This document shows, piece by piece, positions 6,805-14,500 of a stretch of DNA of 64,000 nt. How positions within the stretch are numbered: the first letter of the stretch is position 1; every line of letters starts with the position of its first letter. Made by a program: the position numbers and the translations under genes. Under the pieces are notes generated by a model. The model did not search any database. It was given only the letters and a program-made list of their open reading frames with translations, and had not been told where the DNA came from. The DNA is from a virus (lineage: Duplodnaviria; Caudoviricetes), in the IMG/VR virus record IMGVR_UViG_3300038318_000521, positions 830 to 64,829 of that record, one strand, 5' to 3'.

Positions 6805-7611
6805 TTACAGTTCGAATAATTCTTCCCGAACCTCATATTTTTCCAGACCTACCAAGCCATGAAAGATCTCGGGAACCTCTGGATGAATAATGATGTTCTC
6901 AGATCGGCGTTGGTATTGGGTAGCCTGTAGTTTACTGAAATATCCCTTTCTTTGTTCGTGTTTGGTCGCGAAAAACTCTGCGTGATTCTTGGCTTGTAGC
7001 ATTCTATCTTGCACGAACAAGTCTTTTAGGTGATGTCTCAAAACATTTGAATCGTACTCCGGAGGTAGGTTGTGGCTTGTGAATCCATCTCTGTTTTGGG
7101 GCAGTCCCTCAAAACGAAAACAATCGCCCCCCCACATGGACCGAATCATCGGAGAGTTTCGAAAGATCCGAATGTTTCGGTAAGTATACGTGTCTTGCCT
7201 TTCCCAGCCGAAAATCGTGGTGATGGGTTGTCGTAGAGCGTTATATCCCATGTAGTGAGCCATCTCGATTTCTGCCAGGGTAGCTTCGTATAAACGAGGG
7301 TGGAAGTATTCATCCGCTTGAATTTCTATAATCCAATCATAGCCCACACATTCGTTTTGAAGCAGGCTTTCTAACGCTTCGTCAATCGTCTCCCAGAATT
7401 GGCTTTTTTGATGGGGAATCTGAGTAACCACAATCTTTGGCCAGCGTTTTTCCATGCGCTTTAAGACTTCTAACGTTCCATCCGTTGATCCACCATCATT
7501 GACAAATAAAACATCTACCAACGGCAATGTTGTAATCAGCGCTTCGACAAATGGGTATTGAGCAGACAAAACGTTATGGAACGGGCAAATGCCCGCAACC
7601 TTAATTCCCAT
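6805..7611 (-). CDS. GT-A fold glycosyltransferase (family 2-like)
   Basis: VNDGGSTDGTLEVL and WIIEIQADE (DXD-like) motifs; ATG chosen after RBS GAGGGG. Confidence 0.85.
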   Translation of the reverse strand: MGIKVAGICPFHNVLSAQYPFVEALITTLPLVDVLFVNDGGSTDGTLEVLKRMEKRWPKIVVTQIPHQKSQFWETIDEALESLLQNECVGYDWIIEIQADEYFHPRLYEATLAEIEMAHYMGYNALRQPITTIFGWERQDTYTYRNIRIFRNSPMIRSMWGGDCFRFEGLPQNRDGFTSHNLPPEYDSNVLRHHLKDLFVQDRMLQAKNHAEFFATKHEQRKGYFSKLQATQYQRRSENIIIHPEVPEIFHGLVGLEKYEVREELFEL

Positions 7612-8569
7612 GTGGGACACCCCTCATAGCCTCTAGGTGTTTTCTAGTATCCTTAGCTATAGCAGGCAAATCAACGTCTGCTCCCAAGAGTATCATTTTT
7701 TCAGCGGGTTTGTCCCCTCCAGGCACATTAAAAAGAACAGTCCACCGTTCCTTAGTCGGTAGGCTGTTCGTTATTATTGTAAAGATTGGTGTTTCTACAA
7801 TGGCTACGCCGTGTAAACAGCTCCACACTATTGGCATACTGAGTAGCTCGATCAAATAATCGGTGCCCGTTTGGTCGATGCTGTTCATCACATCTAGCCA
7901 AATGTCACCGATTCTGATTGACTCCTCACAGTCTAAGCTGCATGGAAAATGTGTTGTTGTGCGCAACCCCATATACCTAAGCATTTGATTCGTATGGATG
8001 TGACCTTCAACCTCTATCACTCTGTCAGCTACCATCTTAGAGTTCTTCGTCTCTTCTGCGGAGTGCCATACGGGGTCATAATAACCGTCTCCCCATTTTT
8101 CTACAAAGAATGTGCTACAACAATCGGGAAACAACAGTAAGTCTCCCAGTTCCTTGTGATCCGTTTGCCCTCTAGCCATGTACGATGAAGCTCTACGAAA
8201 CGCTTCTGCATCTTCTAAGTTCCTGGCCATTACTCCGTAGGCACTACTATTGGAGTCGCCCACCACGGTCGGAATATGCCGATGGCTAAAGCCTCCATAG
8301 TTTCTAGTCCACTGTATTGGAAGCCAAACCATGTTGTCTTTGTGGAATCTTTCGATCAAACTATGAAAGGTGTGGGGCGAAAAGTGGATTGTACCGCACT
8401 TGCGCAGCCCCCTTCTTACCATTTCATATTCGGCTTTATCATGAAGCGGGAGGGCCCTATTCAACATAACTTCGTATTTCTCTCTGGCTTCGGTAGAGTT
8501 CCAAACCAGTCTTGTGAAAGGGTTGACGTCTATCTGCAATAGTCCATCTTGGTTGAGCTTATTCATCAT
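7601..8569 (-). CDS. Cys-motif protein resembling DUF483
   Basis: FPDCCSTFF and HFPCSLDC motifs recall the GYPxCC / PCSxxC pattern of DUF483 (from memory); RBS GGGGAGG. Confidence 0.5.
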   Translation of the reverse strand: MMNKLNQDGLLQIDVNPFTRLVWNSTEAREKYEVMLNRALPLHDKAEYEMVRRGLRKCGTIHFSPHTFHSLIERFHKDNMVWLPIQWTRNYGGFSHRHIPTVVGDSNSSAYGVMARNLEDAEAFRRASSYMARGQTDHKELGDLLLFPDCCSTFFVEKWGDGYYDPVWHSAEETKNSKMVADRVIEVEGHIHTNQMLRYMGLRTTTHFPCSLDCEESIRIGDIWLDVMNSIDQTGTDYLIELLSMPIVWSCLHGVAIVETPIFTIITNSLPTKERWTVLFNVPGGDKPAEKMILLGADVDLPAIAKDTRKHLEAMRGVPHGN

Positions 8570-8580
8570 TTTTTCCTCCC

Positions 8581-9903
8581 CTACACTTTCCACGAGTCGC
8601 CATGATCGCCATGGTCACCGTGTGCTCTGTCGCCGTGTTGTCTATCGCCATGACCACAATCGTCCTCAGAAGGGGACTGGCTGGGTAACGGTTGTGTCGT
8701 CTGCCTGCAATGACTTAGGTTTACCCTGGCATCTTGTCTCCAGCTACTCGCCCTGGGATTACTTAGGGTAGACATAAAGCAAAAAGCGTCAGGATTCATA
8801 CCCTTCACTGAGTTAGGATCTGAGAACGCCTCGCTTTCTCGATCTGTGGTAAGTTCGATGTTTGGTAGCATCATTTTGAGCAACCTTGATGTTTCTTCGA
8901 ACAATCCCCTTAATCCTAGGCAATACCGACTTCGATTACGCCAATCACCATCTATGCCTTCCGCAGGGCACCCTCCGGTGCAATTTCTCCAATATTTACA
9001 GTCTTTGCACCCACCGAGTTCCTGCCCTATCTTGGGAAGAATCTCATAACGAATCAAACCGAACCCTCTATCGCCTGCATTCTGAAAACGGGGATAGATA
9101 TGTCCGGTCTTTGAGGTTTTCATGCAGCTTGCGGTGCTTCCGTCTGACAAAATGACTCTTTCTGCACCGGCGTTGTAATAGTCACACGGAGCGAAAGAAC
9201 AAGTCCCTTGATTAAGACCTAGCAGACTATCTACGATGTCTCGATAAGGAAGCCAATCCCCGCCCACTTCTGTCAAAATAAAACGGGTCATGTCTCGGTA
9301 AAAGTCATCGAGTTCCTCGGGGGTTAGTGCAATTTTCTGTATACTGGGATAATCAATTTCAGCAGGATTCATTCGGCCAGTTATTCCGAGCTCTTTCAAT
9401 TCCAAAATCCATTGTTTAAATGCTTCTCGTTGACCAGGCAAGCCATTAGCTTTTGTAAGCACACAGATGATGCCCACTTGAATACCCTCGCGACGTAGCC
9501 ACTTGATGTTTTCCCAAATTAAATCTGCAACATGTTTATCTTTGGAATCCACTGGTATGCGGTATCGGCTCATCTCGCCAGGCCCATCGAAGGAAACGCC
9601 AACCTGGGTTTTGTAAAGTTTGAAAAGCTCAATATGTTTCTCATTAATCAGAGTTGCGTTCGTTTGGATGGACGAGTGCCCGATTTTCTCAAACGATGTT
9701 GCCAGGATGGCCTCGACCACATCAAGGGGGGCCAGTAAAGCCTCTCCCCCATGAAGGTAAGGTGCGGTTTGCTCTCGCTCGATTTGAGTTAATACCGCCT
9801 CTAAGTCAAGTGGTCTGTGGTTGGCCCTTTCCCGATAAACGTGTTCATAACAGTATGCACACTGTAAATTGCAGAGTGCATTAGTAATTTTTACACTAAG
9901 CAT
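8581..9903 (-). CDS. Radical SAM/SPASM enzyme (peptide-maturase type) with a C-terminal HGD-repeat tail
   Basis: CNLQCAYC (CX3CX2C), HGGE motif, SPASM CSFAPC...C and CKDCKYWRNCTGGC (CX2CX5CX3C)...C. Confidence 0.92.
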   Translation of the reverse strand: MLSVKITNALCNLQCAYCYEHVYRERANHRPLDLEAVLTQIEREQTAPYLHGGEALLAPLDVVEAILATSFEKIGHSSIQTNATLINEKHIELFKLYKTQVGVSFDGPGEMSRYRIPVDSKDKHVADLIWENIKWLRREGIQVGIICVLTKANGLPGQREAFKQWILELKELGITGRMNPAEIDYPSIQKIALTPEELDDFYRDMTRFILTEVGGDWLPYRDIVDSLLGLNQGTCSFAPCDYYNAGAERVILSDGSTASCMKTSKTGHIYPRFQNAGDRGFGLIRYEILPKIGQELGGCKDCKYWRNCTGGCPAEGIDGDWRNRSRYCLGLRGLFEETSRLLKMMLPNIELTTDRESEAFSDPNSVKGMNPDAFCFMSTLSNPRASSWRQDARVNLSHCRQTTQPLPSQSPSEDDCGHGDRQHGDRAHGDHGDHGDSWKV

Positions 9904-9920: not shown

Positions 9921-11516
9921 TTAAAAATACCCCTCAAAACGGGGGTTATCCATGTGACCAGTGCCTGAATCGGAGTGATCGGTGTGGTCAAACGTTATGT
10001 GATCTGTATGGTCTATATAATGAGCATCCCAATATGGGCTAAAAACACCTCCATCATTGTGTATGTTGCCATAATCTTGATGGTCTATATGGGGGTACGG
10101 TATGTTAATGACTTCATCGACATGACCTTCCGCTACGTTAATGTACGCCACGTTTTCATGCGACACGTTTTCGTGAGAGACGTTTTCGTGCGACACGTTT
10201 TCGTGCGACACGTTTTCATGAGACACATTCTCGTGAGAGACATTCTCGTGCGCCACGTTTTCGTGAGACACATTCTCGTGAGACACATTCTCGTGCGCCA
10301 CGTTTTCATGCGATACATTCTCGTGAGAGACATTTTCGTGATCTCGATCTCCGTGGGGCGAATCAAGGTGATCCCCGTGGTCAGAATGGAATGGATCCCA
10401 TCCGTTTAGGTATGGTGTATCTAGATGCACTACATTCTCGTGCGACACGTTTTCATGCGACACGTTCTCATGAGACACATTCTCGTGTGTGCGATTAAAG
10501 TGATCTCGATAATCTCCATGCAGCGTTCCGATGGCTATATCTGTATGACTACGGTTTTCGTGAGGAGAAGCGCTGTCAATGTGATCAAACCACGCATTAT
10601 CGGGATAAGAAGAGCTATCGGAATAAGGGTACGTCCAGTCCACATAATAGGGCCACGAGGGACTTTTCCCCCCCGGATATAGATCTGAATAATTGGCATA
10701 AGGGGGTGAGTAATCCATGTGATCCAAATGAACACGGTCTTCATAACTGGTCCAACTTCCGGAATTCCTGTGTGTCGTGTCGGTGTATGGAGCAATGTTC
10801 TCATGCGACACATTCTCATGCGACACGTTTTCGTGAGATATGTTCTCGTGGGCTCTATCAGTATACGCTTTGTTCTCATGCGCCACGTTTTCATGCGCCA
10901 CGTTTTCATGAGACGTATTCTCGTGTGACACGTTTTCATGAGACGTATTCTCGTGTGACACGTTTTCATGGGACGTATTCTCGTGTGACACGTTTTCGTG
11001 AGACGTATTCTCGTGCGCCACGTTTTCGTGAGACACATTCTCGTGTGACACGTTTTCGTGAGACACATTCTCGTGTGACACGTTTTCGTGATCTTGATCC
11101 GCATGATCATAACTAATGTCCGCGTATATATTCTCGCGAATAAGTCTATCAACATGGTTGTCATCATTGTGTGCAGGCTGGTCCAAGTGATCGGTGTATC
11201 CCTCGTCACGATCACTGTGATACGAACCTCTGATCACATCCCCGCTAGCACTCGGCTTGCTAAACCACAGCCACCTTTGGGGGTCTATGGCTACATAATA
11301 AGGAGGTCTTCCGGATGGAGCTCGCTCTTCGGTGTCGATAACTCGCTTGCGTTGATTCGCATCAATGTAGCAAAAATAGTTTCCCTCGATCCAAAATCTA
11401 CCTGGTGGGTAGGTGGTTGCTCCCATATCGCTGCCTAGGAAACTCCACTCTTCTCCATTTCTGAGGATGTAAAGCCGTTCCCCCTGCACCCAAATATTAC
11501 TGTTATTGTAAGGCAT
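9921..11516 (-). CDS. His/Asx-rich repeat protein (HENVS array); putative virion fibre and rSAM substrate
   Basis: RBS GGAAGGAGG; 37 HEN motifs plus many H/Y/W-x-D/N triads; N-terminal IWVxG/FWIEG beta repeats; immediately downstream of Tal. Confidence 0.85.
   Translation of the reverse strand: MPYNNSNIWVQGERLYILRNGEEWSFLGSDMGATTYPPGRFWIEGNYFCYIDANQRKRVIDTEERAPSGRPPYYVAIDPQRWLWFSKPSASGDVIRGSYHSDRDEGYTDHLDQPAHNDDNHVDRLIRENIYADISYDHADQDHENVSHENVSHENVSHENVSHENVAHENTSHENVSHENTSHENVSHENTSHENVSHENTSHENVAHENVAHENKAYTDRAHENISHENVSHENVSHENIAPYTDTTHRNSGSWTSYEDRVHLDHMDYSPPYANYSDLYPGGKSPSWPYYVDWTYPYSDSSSYPDNAWFDHIDSASPHENRSHTDIAIGTLHGDYRDHFNRTHENVSHENVSHENVSHENVVHLDTPYLNGWDPFHSDHGDHLDSPHGDRDHENVSHENVSHENVAHENVSHENVSHENVAHENVSHENVSHENVSHENVSHENVSHENVSHENVAYINVAEGHVDEVINIPYPHIDHQDYGNIHNDGGVFSPYWDAHYIDHTDHITFDHTDHSDSGTGHMDNPRFEGYF
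10146..10340 (-). repeat. 13 tandem 15-bp units encoding HENV(S/A)
   Basis: Counted directly; units vary mostly at synonymous positions. Confidence 0.95.
10428..10487 (-). repeat. 4 tandem 15-bp units encoding HENV(S/V)
   Basis: Counted directly. Confidence 0.95.
10791..11090 (-). repeat. 15 + 4 tandem 15-bp HENxx units separated by one YTDRA unit
   Basis: 10866-11090 (15 units) and 10791-10850 (4 units), counted directly. Confidence 0.95.
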
Positions 11517-11539
11517 GCCTCCTTCCCCCTCTGCTTACG

Positions 11540-14500
11540 CTAATACGGTTTGACTGGCAAAATGATAGCCGCGGCTTCAACCACTCCTCTGAAGTATGCG
11601 TCCCCCGTCTGGGTGCTCATTTGAATCGATATGCGTCCCAATGTGTCATAAAATACGATTCCAACTCCCGAAATTTCAATTCTGCTGTCGCCTACACCAG
11701 TGCCCATAATCTTTACAGCGTTAGCATCAATTGTACCTGTTGTGATGTGTGAGCCATTGATATAGGTAAAACCATAACTAACCGCCAGCACAGCTGGGTT
11801 GTCTGTGGTGAAGTACATACCGATTAGAAAATAGTGATACGAACTATCTTGGAGTGCTGGCCTTGTTGTACTAAACATGATCTCACCAGCAGTAGTCGTC
11901 TTGGAGCATCTGGCGTACACGTAAAACTGTTGGCCTAATGTTTGCTGTTGAGTTTTAGCCGAAATGTTCCAAGTCTTCGCTTCCTCTCCAACATCCGTGG
12001 CTAGAATTAAATAGCCCGAGGTGTTAGAAAACTTTCCGCTGATATCATCGGTATTTGCATCCATCTTTACACCAACTAGCTGGAAGTTTCTTGTCCCGGC
12101 CCCAACTGCCAGATGTTGTGTCTCGACCGTAGTTGGCTTAATCCCTGCACCGTCAAAATAACCCTCTTCATTCCCAAAAAAGTGATGGTCTAGTAGCTTT
12201 TGGTAAGTTTGTTGCGCTAGATATGTGGCCGCAATACGGTCAGAAAGTAGTTTCGGAATATTCACCGTGACCACATTGGACGGTGGGCTTACATTATGCG
12301 AACGATCTCTAGCCCGCACACGTACATAAACGACTTGATCGGCGTACATACCTGTAAGATTGAAGGTATTCGATGAGCTATAGTACGTTTTAAGGTTTTG
12401 CGTGAAGGAGCTGTTCGTAGCAACCTCAATTACATAGTCAAGCAAATCTGAAATCACAACCGGTTGCCAGTGTAAAACCACATCTCCGTCATCGTTAATG
12501 GAAACAATCAGGCCAGTTGGTGCTCCAGGAGCATTCGCTTTCCCACCTATCGCTAGGGATGTTGTGGGGTCGCCAGTGGAGTAAATCCCTGCCCTGCTAA
12601 CCGTTCTGACCCGCCATGTGTAAGTAACGCCAGAGGCAAGCCCTTGCGTGTCTTGGTAGACTTCCGAATCCTTGTCCAACGTAGCAATAGTGTAAAAGGT
12701 TCCTCCGTCCGCCGAACGGTCCACAAACTGTTGGTGAGCATGTTCGCTCTCGCTTTTTGTCCAGGTCAATTCTGCAACCAAAACGACATTGCCATCTTTA
12801 GAAACAAACGATTTTTCCTGGGCATTCAGATTAGTAGCCGGTTCTGGTGGAGTAGGATCTTCTGTGGGGATTTCTTCGACGGTAGCTGAGACGATTTCGG
12901 ACCACTCACTGATTCTGCTGTTTTTGATGGCTGCTACTTGATACTCCCAAACGCTGTCTATTTCAAGCTGCTGGTGGATAAAGACACTGGTTGGTGAATC
13001 GAACACCAGCCAAGGGCCATTCTCTGTTCTAGCTCTGACAGCCCAAGAATCTGCGTTGCTTGTCCATGTAACGACAATGTAGCCGAAGTTGGGATGAGCG
13101 ATCACTTGTTTGGGTACGTCTGGAATATCTCCCAAAGTTCTGCTTGATGGTCGTCTGCCAAGGAGTGGTTCCACGGGATTATATAAGAAGTCATTTAGCC
13201 CCCAACGAATGCGACGATCAGAACGACTACTTTGGAAACTCTCATCCTTGATCCTGGCATTTGCCACCATTTTGTTTCTTGGGTGTACTACTGTGATGGT
13301 ATCCCCGAGGCTGACTCCGTTTAACTCCCTTATATCATCCACGGGAATTGATACCTCGAAAGCTATATCGGGTTGACTTCGTCTTTCTAGTTCTCTTTGT
13401 CCAGCCTGAATCAACTCCGCCATTGTTTCGGCTTCTGGGAACACAAAATCATTGGGGAGTTCGCCATGATCCTTGATTGACTGATCGTTTTTGAGCTGGA
13501 CGTATAATTGTTTGGCGCCTTCTCCTGCCCCAAAACAATCTAAGACGTTCGCTAGTTTAGTCTGGTCGTCCCTTAACACTGTGATCGCGATGTTCCTACT
13601 GTGTTCTATGACGAACGGGTCTTCACTGTTGATCGTTCTGTTTTGACCAAGGGTTGCCTCACCGTTTTCGCCTAGGTCCAAGTAGACCTTCTTGGCCGCT
13701 TCGTCATGACGGACTCGAAACTCCCATCCGTATTCATCGCAAATGTTGGCTAAACTCTGCAAGAAGTCCACTCGTTCAAATTCAAAGCCTTGAACAATGA
13801 TGCCAGTGGTCGAGGGGATGCTTCCAACGTTAAGGAATGTTTGTTCTCGCCAGATTAGCTCCACGCCTTCAAGATAAGGCGTAAAACCATACCCTACAAC
13901 CTCGCCATGAGCATCTTTGCGCACACTTTCTTGATCCTCGGTGTAGAGATTGATACGAACATCAACCCATCGTCCTGTACCGGCGATAGGAACACCATTA
14001 ACCTCGTTTTCTTGAACATCGCCGACGTTTATTGCGGTCATCTCTGGTCCCCAGGAGGCACTATCTAAACCTGCGCTCGTGGCAGCACTTCTGCTTTGTA
14101 CAGCAATCCGAACGTAAGCATCAATAATCTCTGTCCAGCGGAGGATTCGTCCTGAGCTCAAAGCACTCTCGCCTAAGTCATGGCGAAACTGGATGTAGCC
14201 CCATGCTTTAGGGCGTTCATTTTGAGGGTCCTCTGGGTGTGGTTCATACTCCAAAATAACTGACCCAGGTTCGGTGTCGATGTCTACTTGGTATCTTATA
14301 GCTGTTTCCCAATCCGCTTTGGTGTTCCACCTTTTAAATCGGAATCGTCTTGTGTGATCACGAACCGCATCTGCTAAATCTTGGCCATTCCAACCCTGCC
14401 ATTTTGAGGGCGTTTTGAAATTCTTCATACGGTGGGCATGGCCTTGAACGGCAAAAGAGTATTCCTCGCCAGCTAGGTCCCTGCTTTGAATAAAGCCTGT

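Follow-up and report, generated by a model that had tools for sequence, protein, structure and literature searches.

Why should a radical S-adenosylmethionine (SAM) enzyme carry at its own C-terminus a repeat of the kind that fills the protein encoded beside it? The question is raised by a 64,000-nucleotide stretch of DNA (hereafter the window) that spans positions 830 to 64,829 of IMG/VR record IMGVR_UViG_3300038318_000521, a virus of the Duplodnaviria (Caudoviricetes). One gene of the window encodes a radical SAM/SPASM (rSAM) enzyme whose last residues hold five copies of the tripeptide His-Gly-Asp (HGD), and next to it lies a gene for a protein dominated by His-x-Asp/Asn motifs (H-x-[D/N], or H-x-Asx). 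The reading that we favour, and to which we give an even chance of being right, is that the HGD tail is a tethered peptide of the substrate type that enters the enzyme's own active site, either as a cis-substrate or as a pseudosubstrate.

A conserved HGD repeat closes the enzyme

The preliminary description of this DNA had reported that the enzyme ends in five HGD units, and this is indeed the case: the 440-residue protein closes with ...SEDDCGHGDRQHGDRAHGDHGDHGDSWKV directly before the stop codon, all five units lie at residues 418-436, and the segment 8581-8655 that had been assigned to the tail consists of the stop codon and residues 417-440. The peptides QHGDR and AHGDHGDHGDSWK both fall within this C-terminus. 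The repeat is far beyond chance, as 200,000 shuffles of the enzyme sequence produced four or more HGD units in no case and three units in 11 cases. In an AlphaFold2 model of the whole enzyme (built from a 95-sequence alignment, with a mean predicted local distance difference test score (pLDDT) of 89.5), residues 409-440 are predicted to be disordered, with pLDDT values below 50. The stretch between the SPASM domain and the tail had been described as a low-complexity linker; it is instead mostly ordered, from residue 346 to about 405 at a pLDDT of ~88-98, and variability sets in only from about residue 406, with pLDDT falling through the linker of residues ~406-416 from ~88 to ~55 and then to below 50.

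To see how far the tail extends through the family we used 117 clusters of full-length homologues obtained by protein search, and defined the tail window as the last 90 residues of each. At least two H-x-[D/N] motifs were present in this window in 87 of the 117 clusters (74%), down to ~30% identity, with a median of 4 motifs, a maximum of 16, and HGD accounting for 58% of all tail motifs. Conservation in homologues had been named in the preliminary description as a check on the tail, and absence from close homologues was not seen, as each of the 13 close homologue clusters has the tail in nearly unchanged form. Over the 14 most similar sequences (58-100% identity) the pattern HGDRPHGD..HGD is almost invariant, while the 20-35 residues that lead from the conserved SSWRxDA motif to the first HGD are hypervariable in both length and sequence, and the tail is identical in all 15 listed members of the cluster formed at 90% identity. 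This pattern indicates that the tail motif is under purifying selection, and its retention across most of the family implies that it has a use.

When only the catalytic core was used to build a tree with FastTree, enzymes with a tail stood on both sides of the deepest split, and at least 4 or 5 gains or losses of the tail have to be placed, a count that is a lower bound because the rows of the tree were chosen in favour of tail-bearers. Tails range in size from 2 to 26 motifs, the largest being the 260-residue H-x-D-rich extension of homologue P0113, and about a quarter of the family has no tail, some clades having lost it. In one tail-less clade the protein ends right past SSWRxDA (...PSSWRQDARTQK). 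No separate HGD peptide that could stand in for the tail was found when the tail-less clades were searched for one. In another clade the tail is cut down to a single PHADHTD-x-TG-x-Y module, and a small protein of 118-127 amino acids, encoded there between the rSAM gene and a gene for a DUF483-methyltransferase fusion (a cassette component considered below), holds two copies of a HADHVD-xx-G-x-Y module. As the module occurs on a separate cassette protein as well as on the enzyme tail, it behaves as a unit that is recognised by the system.

A tail of this sort could be a functionless by-product of repeat-prone DNA or of recombination with the adjacent repeat gene, and variation in motif number between 2 and 26 among lineages, together with loss in some clades, would be expected of such an origin. 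The five HGD units are, however, written in differing synonymous codons (CAT GGC GAT / CAC GGC GAC / CAC GGT GAC, and so on), and the tail DNA and the repeat-protein gene have no exact 8-mer in common, so that the tail is neither a recent slippage product nor a copied piece of the repeat gene; recent DNA copying from that gene is ruled out on the same two grounds. The tail moreover has a Gly-rich make-up of its own, has been kept down to ~30% identity in both phage and cellular lineages, and is near-invariant among close homologues against a drifting linker, to the point of identity in the 15 members mentioned above. Judged by this pattern of conservation, the functionless reading appears close to excluded.

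The tail and the neighbouring protein share a motif grammar

In the 531-residue protein encoded upstream, which is the presumed substrate, 62 of the 64 His residues stand in H-x-[D/N] motifs, compared with 12.6 +/- 3 in shuffled sequences. The preliminary description had noted a match between the tail and this protein, and a matching segment, HSDHGDHLDSPHGDRD, is found at its residues 377-392. Given that 62 of 64 His residues obey the wider motif, however, the unit common to the tail and the 531-residue protein is H-x-Asx and not HGD as such; of the motifs in substrates, 11% are HGD.

Another 80 loci came from a scan of viral contigs and, together with four others and the window, were condensed to 65 non-redundant loci. 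In 59 of these 65, one or more H-x-[D/N]-rich proteins with 3-154 motifs are encoded next to the enzyme on the same strand, and the loci that lack one are mostly short contigs. These rich proteins come in two kinds, being either stand-alone proteins with an N-terminal domain of the type seen in the window (51 open reading frames, ORFs) or C-terminal extensions of large tail proteins (L002 and L004). The proposed link between the enzyme and the repeat protein is thus real, in that both follow the same grammar and their genes co-occur; the preliminary description had regarded the tail as the strongest internal link, a place that belongs instead to the conserved gene neighbourhood. The N-terminal domain of the repeat protein is built of about three repeats of a G-S-[IV]-W-[IV]-E-G...L-x-Y-[IL]-D...G...R unit, and may serve for attachment or recognition.

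His is the main aromatic residue of the substrate motif, followed by others. In the repeat regions of 59 substrates, Asp or Asn occupies the +2 position after 95% of His, 49% of Phe, 45% of Trp and 42% of Tyr residues, compared with a composition-based expectation of ~22%, and with 3-11% for every non-aromatic residue tested. The substrate of one locus (L039, 2908-3945, plus strand) has long TPF-x-N/D arrays with a period of 5 in place of most His-x-Asx, which points more clearly than any other observation to an aromatic-x-Asx motif and away from a metal site. The tails themselves keep to the same preference, as Tyr and Trp precede x-D/N three to four times as often as non-aromatic residues do, and in-register YGD, YTD and WED units occur in the tails of several lineages. 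The tail obeys the substrate rule and yet is no plain copy of a substrate. The Asn shares at the third position of tail and substrate motifs co-vary in no more than a weak trend (Spearman 0.27, p = 0.07). Substrates at loci with a tailed enzyme have a median of 42 motifs versus 12 at tail-less loci (Mann-Whitney p = 3e-4, a statistic that ignores relatedness).

A His/Asp-rich disordered tail might alternatively chelate a divalent metal (Zn, Fe, Ni or Mn), for which we consider two variants jointly: the tail could be a local metal store for the three Fe-S clusters of the enzyme, or it could form a metal-bridged zipper onto the long H-x-D arrays so that many motifs are processed per encounter. 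The tail consists almost wholly of His, Gly and Asp, with higher Gly and Asp contents than the substrates have and nearly no Phe-x-D, and it shares a disordered His/Asp-rich terminus with HypB, SlyD and UreE, whose His-rich tails bind metal. Phage fibres are known to bind iron through His motifs, as at the iron-binding HxH motifs in the tip of the T4 gp37 fibre, so that His-based repeats in a fibre-like phage protein have a counterpart there, and the larger number of motifs at tailed loci would suit a processivity tether. Against this, the aromatic-x-Asx rule accepts Phe, Trp and Tyr in place of His, and since Phe and Trp are not metal ligands, metal binding alone does not explain the substrate motif, nor can the shared motif be primarily a metal site. 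The in-register YGD, YTD and WED units of several lineages' tails speak in the same direction, no metallochaperone or metallocentre-assembly genes are present in the cassettes, in which the present system differs from HypB, SlyD and UreE as well as from T4 gp37, and tail-less enzymes serve substrates with as many as 51-61 motifs. On balance we consider metal chelation unlikely as the role of the tail, and note that self-modification and metal binding do not exclude each other.

The enzyme belongs with the peptide maturases

The enzyme matches the Pfam Radical_SAM family (PF04055) with E = 1.5e-13. Its CxxxCxxC motif (C11, C15 and C18) is invariant or nearly so in two homologue alignments, while the SPASM auxiliary-cluster residues C235, C260, C299, C302, C308, C312 and C328 are invariant in 95 sequences, with C240 nearly so. 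Since the radical SAM motif already begins at residue 11, there is no N-terminal RRE domain. The top NCBIfam matches are cyclophane maturases (AmcB, DynA, GrrM/OscB, YhhB, FxsB and XyeB) together with the anaerobic sulfatase-maturating enzyme (anSME), all of them far under the curated cut-offs (bits against cut-off: AmcB 86/425, GrrM/OscB 60/310, YhhB 48/445, FxsB 35/370, XyeB 27/450), and the enzyme is consequently a relative of these families and a member of no named one. Foldseek placed the model closest to anSMEcpe with bound peptide (4k39; E = 1.9e-14, target-normalised TM-score 0.73) and next to the triceptide synthase ChlB (9gm3_C; E = 6.3e-13, target-normalised TM-score 0.71, 397 aligned columns), with further matches to CteB and SuiB. 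The fold of the model alone cannot tell anSME from ChlB, anSME having the slightly better score. Taken together, the enzyme is best explained as one of the radical SAM/SPASM peptide maturases of the anSME/triceptide-synthase group, in a branch that is undescribed and mostly phage-borne.

Two named systems were considered and rejected. For HxsB (TIGR03978) of the His-Xaa-Ser system (HxsB/HxsC with HxsA repeats) the enzyme scores 31 bits versus a cut-off of 370, and that system has Ser at the +2 position in place of Asp or Asn. For anSME itself (TIGR03942) the score is 77 bits versus a cut-off of 349, and no sulfatase gene was found in the window region or in related loci.

Triceptide synthases install three-residue cyclophanes on aromatic-X-X3 motifs, and in the His-type triceptides HAA, HNR and HTK the C2 of His is cross-linked to a beta-carbon (PMC11499958). 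By analogy the enzyme probably cross-links the His-x-Asp/Asn motifs of the neighbouring tail-module protein, and the motif grammar and enzyme class suggest that the product is most likely a three-residue cyclophane, with the aromatic ring joined to the beta-carbon of Asx as HaaB, YhhB and HtkB would do it. Like these His-type synthases and ChlB, whose fold match lies near that of anSME, the enzyme consists of a radical SAM core with a SPASM domain, and its presumed substrate is likewise arranged in aromatic-X-X3 triads in which His is the main aromatic. The systems differ in that the third residue here is Asp or Asn, and Ala, Arg or Lys there; in that the substrates here are large phage tail-module proteins with up to ~150 motifs, those of the triceptide synthases being short leader-core peptides; and in that a DUF483-like partner is constant here and the motif recurs on the tail of the enzyme itself.

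A proposed tethered peptide for the active site

The foregoing can be brought together in the following model. The true substrate would be the neighbouring tail-module protein, made of aromatic-x-Asp/Asn triads that are mostly His-x-Asx, and in the last 24 residues of the enzyme this triad recurs five times in the form that is least hindered, His-Gly-Asp. A disordered tail on a short variable linker could reach the peptide cleft of its own enzyme or that of a second enzyme molecule, and tethered ligands are usually built in this way, from a disordered tail and a conserved motif on a variable linker. Provided that the enzyme acts on H-x-D at all, five copies of the motif at very high local concentration should lead the tail to enter the cleft and be modified there. 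The tail would thus fill the cleft as long as substrate is absent, and would probably be cross-linked there itself; what has been selected might then be a gating or priming role, namely sealing of the radical site, limitation of wasteful SAM cleavage, or exclusion of foreign peptides. In its fullest form this model holds that the enzyme modifies itself, its tethered HGD units being cyclised in its own active site as a gate or primer before dozens of His-x-Asx cyclophanes are stitched into the phage tail protein, a proposal that we offer as tentative and hold to be possible, if doubtful. The motif and its conservation, the common grammar, the neighbourhood of genes, the class of fold and the disorder predicted for the tail are shown here; that the tail enters the active site, is modified by the enzyme itself and acts as a gate is what we infer from them.

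Two previously described tails serve as precedents and lend support to gating or priming. In TigE, an rSAM/SPASM cyclopropylglycine synthase, the C-terminal tail lies in the groove of its own RRE, and self-regulation was proposed by the authors (PMC10878394). TigE, too, is a peptide maturase of the rSAM/SPASM type in which a peptide-binding site is taken up by the enzyme's own C-terminal residues, with the difference that its tail mimics leader binding at an N-terminal RRE; the enzyme described here lacks such a domain, and its tail repeats the core motif that is modified. The disordered C-terminal GG tail of MoaA is essential and has been proposed to insert next to SAM, sealing the active site (PMC9026282). 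MoaA too combines a disordered rSAM tail with a small conserved motif on a variable stretch; unlike the present enzyme it has GTP (guanosine triphosphate), and no peptide, as its substrate, to which its tail bears no resemblance.

Several observations weigh against the tethered-peptide reading. Gly takes the middle position in 51% of the motifs of tails versus 11% in substrates, the third residue is Asp in 94% versus 79%, and the tail is almost pure His/Asp with nearly no Phe-x-D, a combination that is not enriched in tails; a make-up so unlike that of the substrates would also suit a metal site. Tail-less enzymes still adjoin H-x-D proteins, some of them with 51-61 motifs, so that the basic reaction can do without the tail. 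AlphaFold2 left the tail undocked, an objection that is weak because the model contained no clusters, SAM or cross-links. Finally, the cross-links in both the tail and the neighbouring protein are putative.

Small precursors, overlooked genes and the borosin comparison

In borosins of the OphMA type, a methyltransferase carries at its C-terminus, as a fusion, the core peptide that it modifies; this core is the sole substrate of the enzyme and is released as product. The HGD tail might similarly be a true fused precursor that is cross-linked, cut and then released or used as a small modified peptide. The two systems are alike in having a substrate-type sequence at the C-terminus of the enzyme that recognises it and in making self-modification likely; here, in contrast, there is a separate and much larger substrate, at 59 of the 65 loci and also at the two loci (L085 and L088) that had seemed to lack one. 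At both of the latter, a six-frame scan uncovered H-x-D ORFs that adjoin the rSAM genes and that public gene callers had skipped or placed in the wrong frame or on the wrong strand, and the annotation of H-x-D repeat genes in databases is probably incomplete. That the tails of P0113 and P0079 might be the sole H-x-D sequences at their loci, and so true fusions of enzyme and substrate, was considered and set aside when the six-frame scan found separate H-x-D ORFs.

Tails that reach 26 motifs in the 260-residue extension of P0113 would be large enough for a precursor, and cellular relatives do have small, secreted-looking precursors with 3-11 motifs. One of these cellular loci (L003) encodes a tail-less enzyme, a DUF483-like protein and a 78-residue peptide with a twin-arginine-like signal that ends in three H-x-D motifs. 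Another, from Planctomycetota (L087), encodes PqqD, a tailed enzyme, a DUF483-methyltransferase fusion and a 136-residue signal-bearing precursor with 11 motifs. By their gene content these two cassettes look like RiPP pathways (for peptides that are made on the ribosome and modified after translation) whose product is exported. A fusion partner of one DUF483-like domain contains an HExxH-like motif and could be a protease. Nevertheless, every locus that was closely examined, including L085 and L088, has a separate H-x-D/N protein, the linker between body and tail is hypervariable and has no conserved cleavage motif, and no protease is constant in the cassette. The separate protein at each closely examined locus speaks against the mini-precursor of the preliminary description, if that is taken strictly to mean a substrate that is the sole one or is released, and we regard this alternative as very unlikely.

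The third cassette member and its fusions

Besides the enzyme and the repeat protein, the cassette has a constant third member of the DUF483-like type, matches to which were found in 79 ORFs over all loci (redundant ones included) and in almost every locus. Residues P148, C150, C151, C210 and C214 (numbering of the 322-residue protein of the window) are invariant. A model of the protein reached a pLDDT of 92.8; it had no sequence match in the Protein Data Bank (PDB) and no clear structural match there (best 2guk with Z 7.3, and NleE with Z 5.5). Many loci have the domain joined to a SAM methyltransferase, L002 and L018 have it joined to a family-2 glycosyltransferase (GT2), and in P0112 it is joined to the rSAM enzyme (for DUF483 fusions see also PMC11437467). 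In L085 a DUF483-like domain is fused to a C-terminal region with the HExxH-like motif VHELGH (9926-11722, plus strand), and the L085 locus as a whole lies on an element with a TrwC relaxase and an integrase.

A partner of this constancy raises the possibility that the tail is a docking motif, by which the DUF483-like protein, the glycosyltransferase or the fibre would recognise H-x-D and so gather the tailoring enzymes. Conserved short motifs on flexible linkers are typical of docking sites, DUF483-like proteins occur in nearly all loci, and their fusion to rSAM, methyltransferase or GT2 domains in some loci would be in keeping with such an assembly. DUF483-like proteins are, however, equally present beside tail-less enzymes, and the natural rSAM-DUF483 fusion P0112 has no HGD stretch, which together make docking quite unlikely in our estimation. 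Of the readings considered, we therefore retain the tethered peptide as the one that we favour.

The same three genes occur in Thermus phage Cumys (L001; PQ109079, 6955-10185), where they follow the baseplate genes. One encodes the first 'hypothetical protein' of the module, of 343 amino acids, in which 54 of 54 His residues stand in H-x-D, another an rSAM enzyme that is 33% identical to that of the window and has the C-terminus HGDYTDHGDAPHGDHWDG, and the remaining one a DUF483 protein. This 'rSAM module' of Cumys and of Thermus phage phiMa was guessed to be involved in DNA modification, and the histidine motifs went unmentioned (PMC11437467). Coordinates of the cassette in the window and of the additional small genes are collected in Table 1.

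Table 1. Features of the rSAM cassette in the window, and small H-x-D genes of related loci (locus handle before the coordinates).
Feature	Position	Strand	Basis
rSAM/SPASM enzyme ORF, 440 amino acids	8581-9903	minus	translation
Radical SAM core and SPASM domain, residues 1-345	8869..9903	minus	Pfam PF04055; conserved Cys columns; Foldseek
Ordered C-terminal extension after SPASM, residues 346-405, including SSWRxDA	8689..8868	minus	pLDDT ~88-98
SSWRxDA motif, residues 385-393 (W388)	~8725-8751	minus	W388 nearly invariant in alignment
Variable linker, residues ~406-416, from ordered body to HGD units	8656..8688	minus	homologue comparison; pLDDT drop
C-terminal tail, residues G417-V440: five HGD units (418-436), then SWKV	8584..8655	minus	translation
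Stop codon TAG of the rSAM gene	8581..8583	minus	sequence
GGAGG ribosome-binding site for the next gene, after the rSAM stop	~8572-8580	minus	sequence
Presumed substrate, 531 amino acids: N-terminal domain of ~95 residues, then 62 H-x-[D/N] (37 HEN in HENVS arrays)	9921..11516	minus	motif count
HSDHGDHLDSPHGDRD in the 531-residue protein, residues 377-392	10341-10388	minus	translation
N-terminal domain of the repeat protein, residues 1-95	11232-11516	minus	common to 51 ORFs
DUF483-like protein, 322 amino acids	7601..8569	minus	weak Pfam DUF483 match; constant third cassette member
Family-2 glycosyltransferase, accessory cassette member	6805..7620	minus	Pfam
Small cellular precursors	L003:8214-8450, L087:9169-9579	plus	SRRxLIRAGW signal; 3 or 11 H-x-D/N; beside PqqD and NTP_transf_5 genes
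Overlooked H-x-D ORFs	L085:7524-7961 (19 motifs), L088:9407-10207 (37 motifs)	plus	six-frame scan
Small two-module protein	L015:8316-8684, L023:1971-2327, L026:6667-7050	plus	module equals enzyme tail in that clade

Significance

In the literature that was searched we found no description of such a tail, of H-x-Asx substrates of radical SAM enzymes, or of rSAM action on phage tail proteins. A self-binding C-terminal tail has precedents; what is new is that the core motif itself is repeated on the tail of the enzyme and has been kept across a large family. On the usual view, radical SAM enzymes that modify peptides locate their substrate by means of a leader peptide and a recognition domain. 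The family described here has neither an N-terminal recognition domain nor short leader-core substrates, and has instead large phage tail proteins as its presumed substrates and a copy of the core motif on its own tail. These observations also offer a reading at the level of protein for the Cumys/phiMa 'rSAM module' that was earlier guessed to be DNA-modifying (PMC11437467).

If the tail does gate or prime the active site, it would be a new, simple and engineerable control device for radical chemistry, and the enzyme would at the same time be its own reporter substrate in mass spectrometry, and with it an easy handle for proving the chemistry. Should self-modification prove true, the enzyme would be the first known case of a radical SAM maturase that bears its own core motif, and would be part of the first such modification system to act on a virion structural protein.

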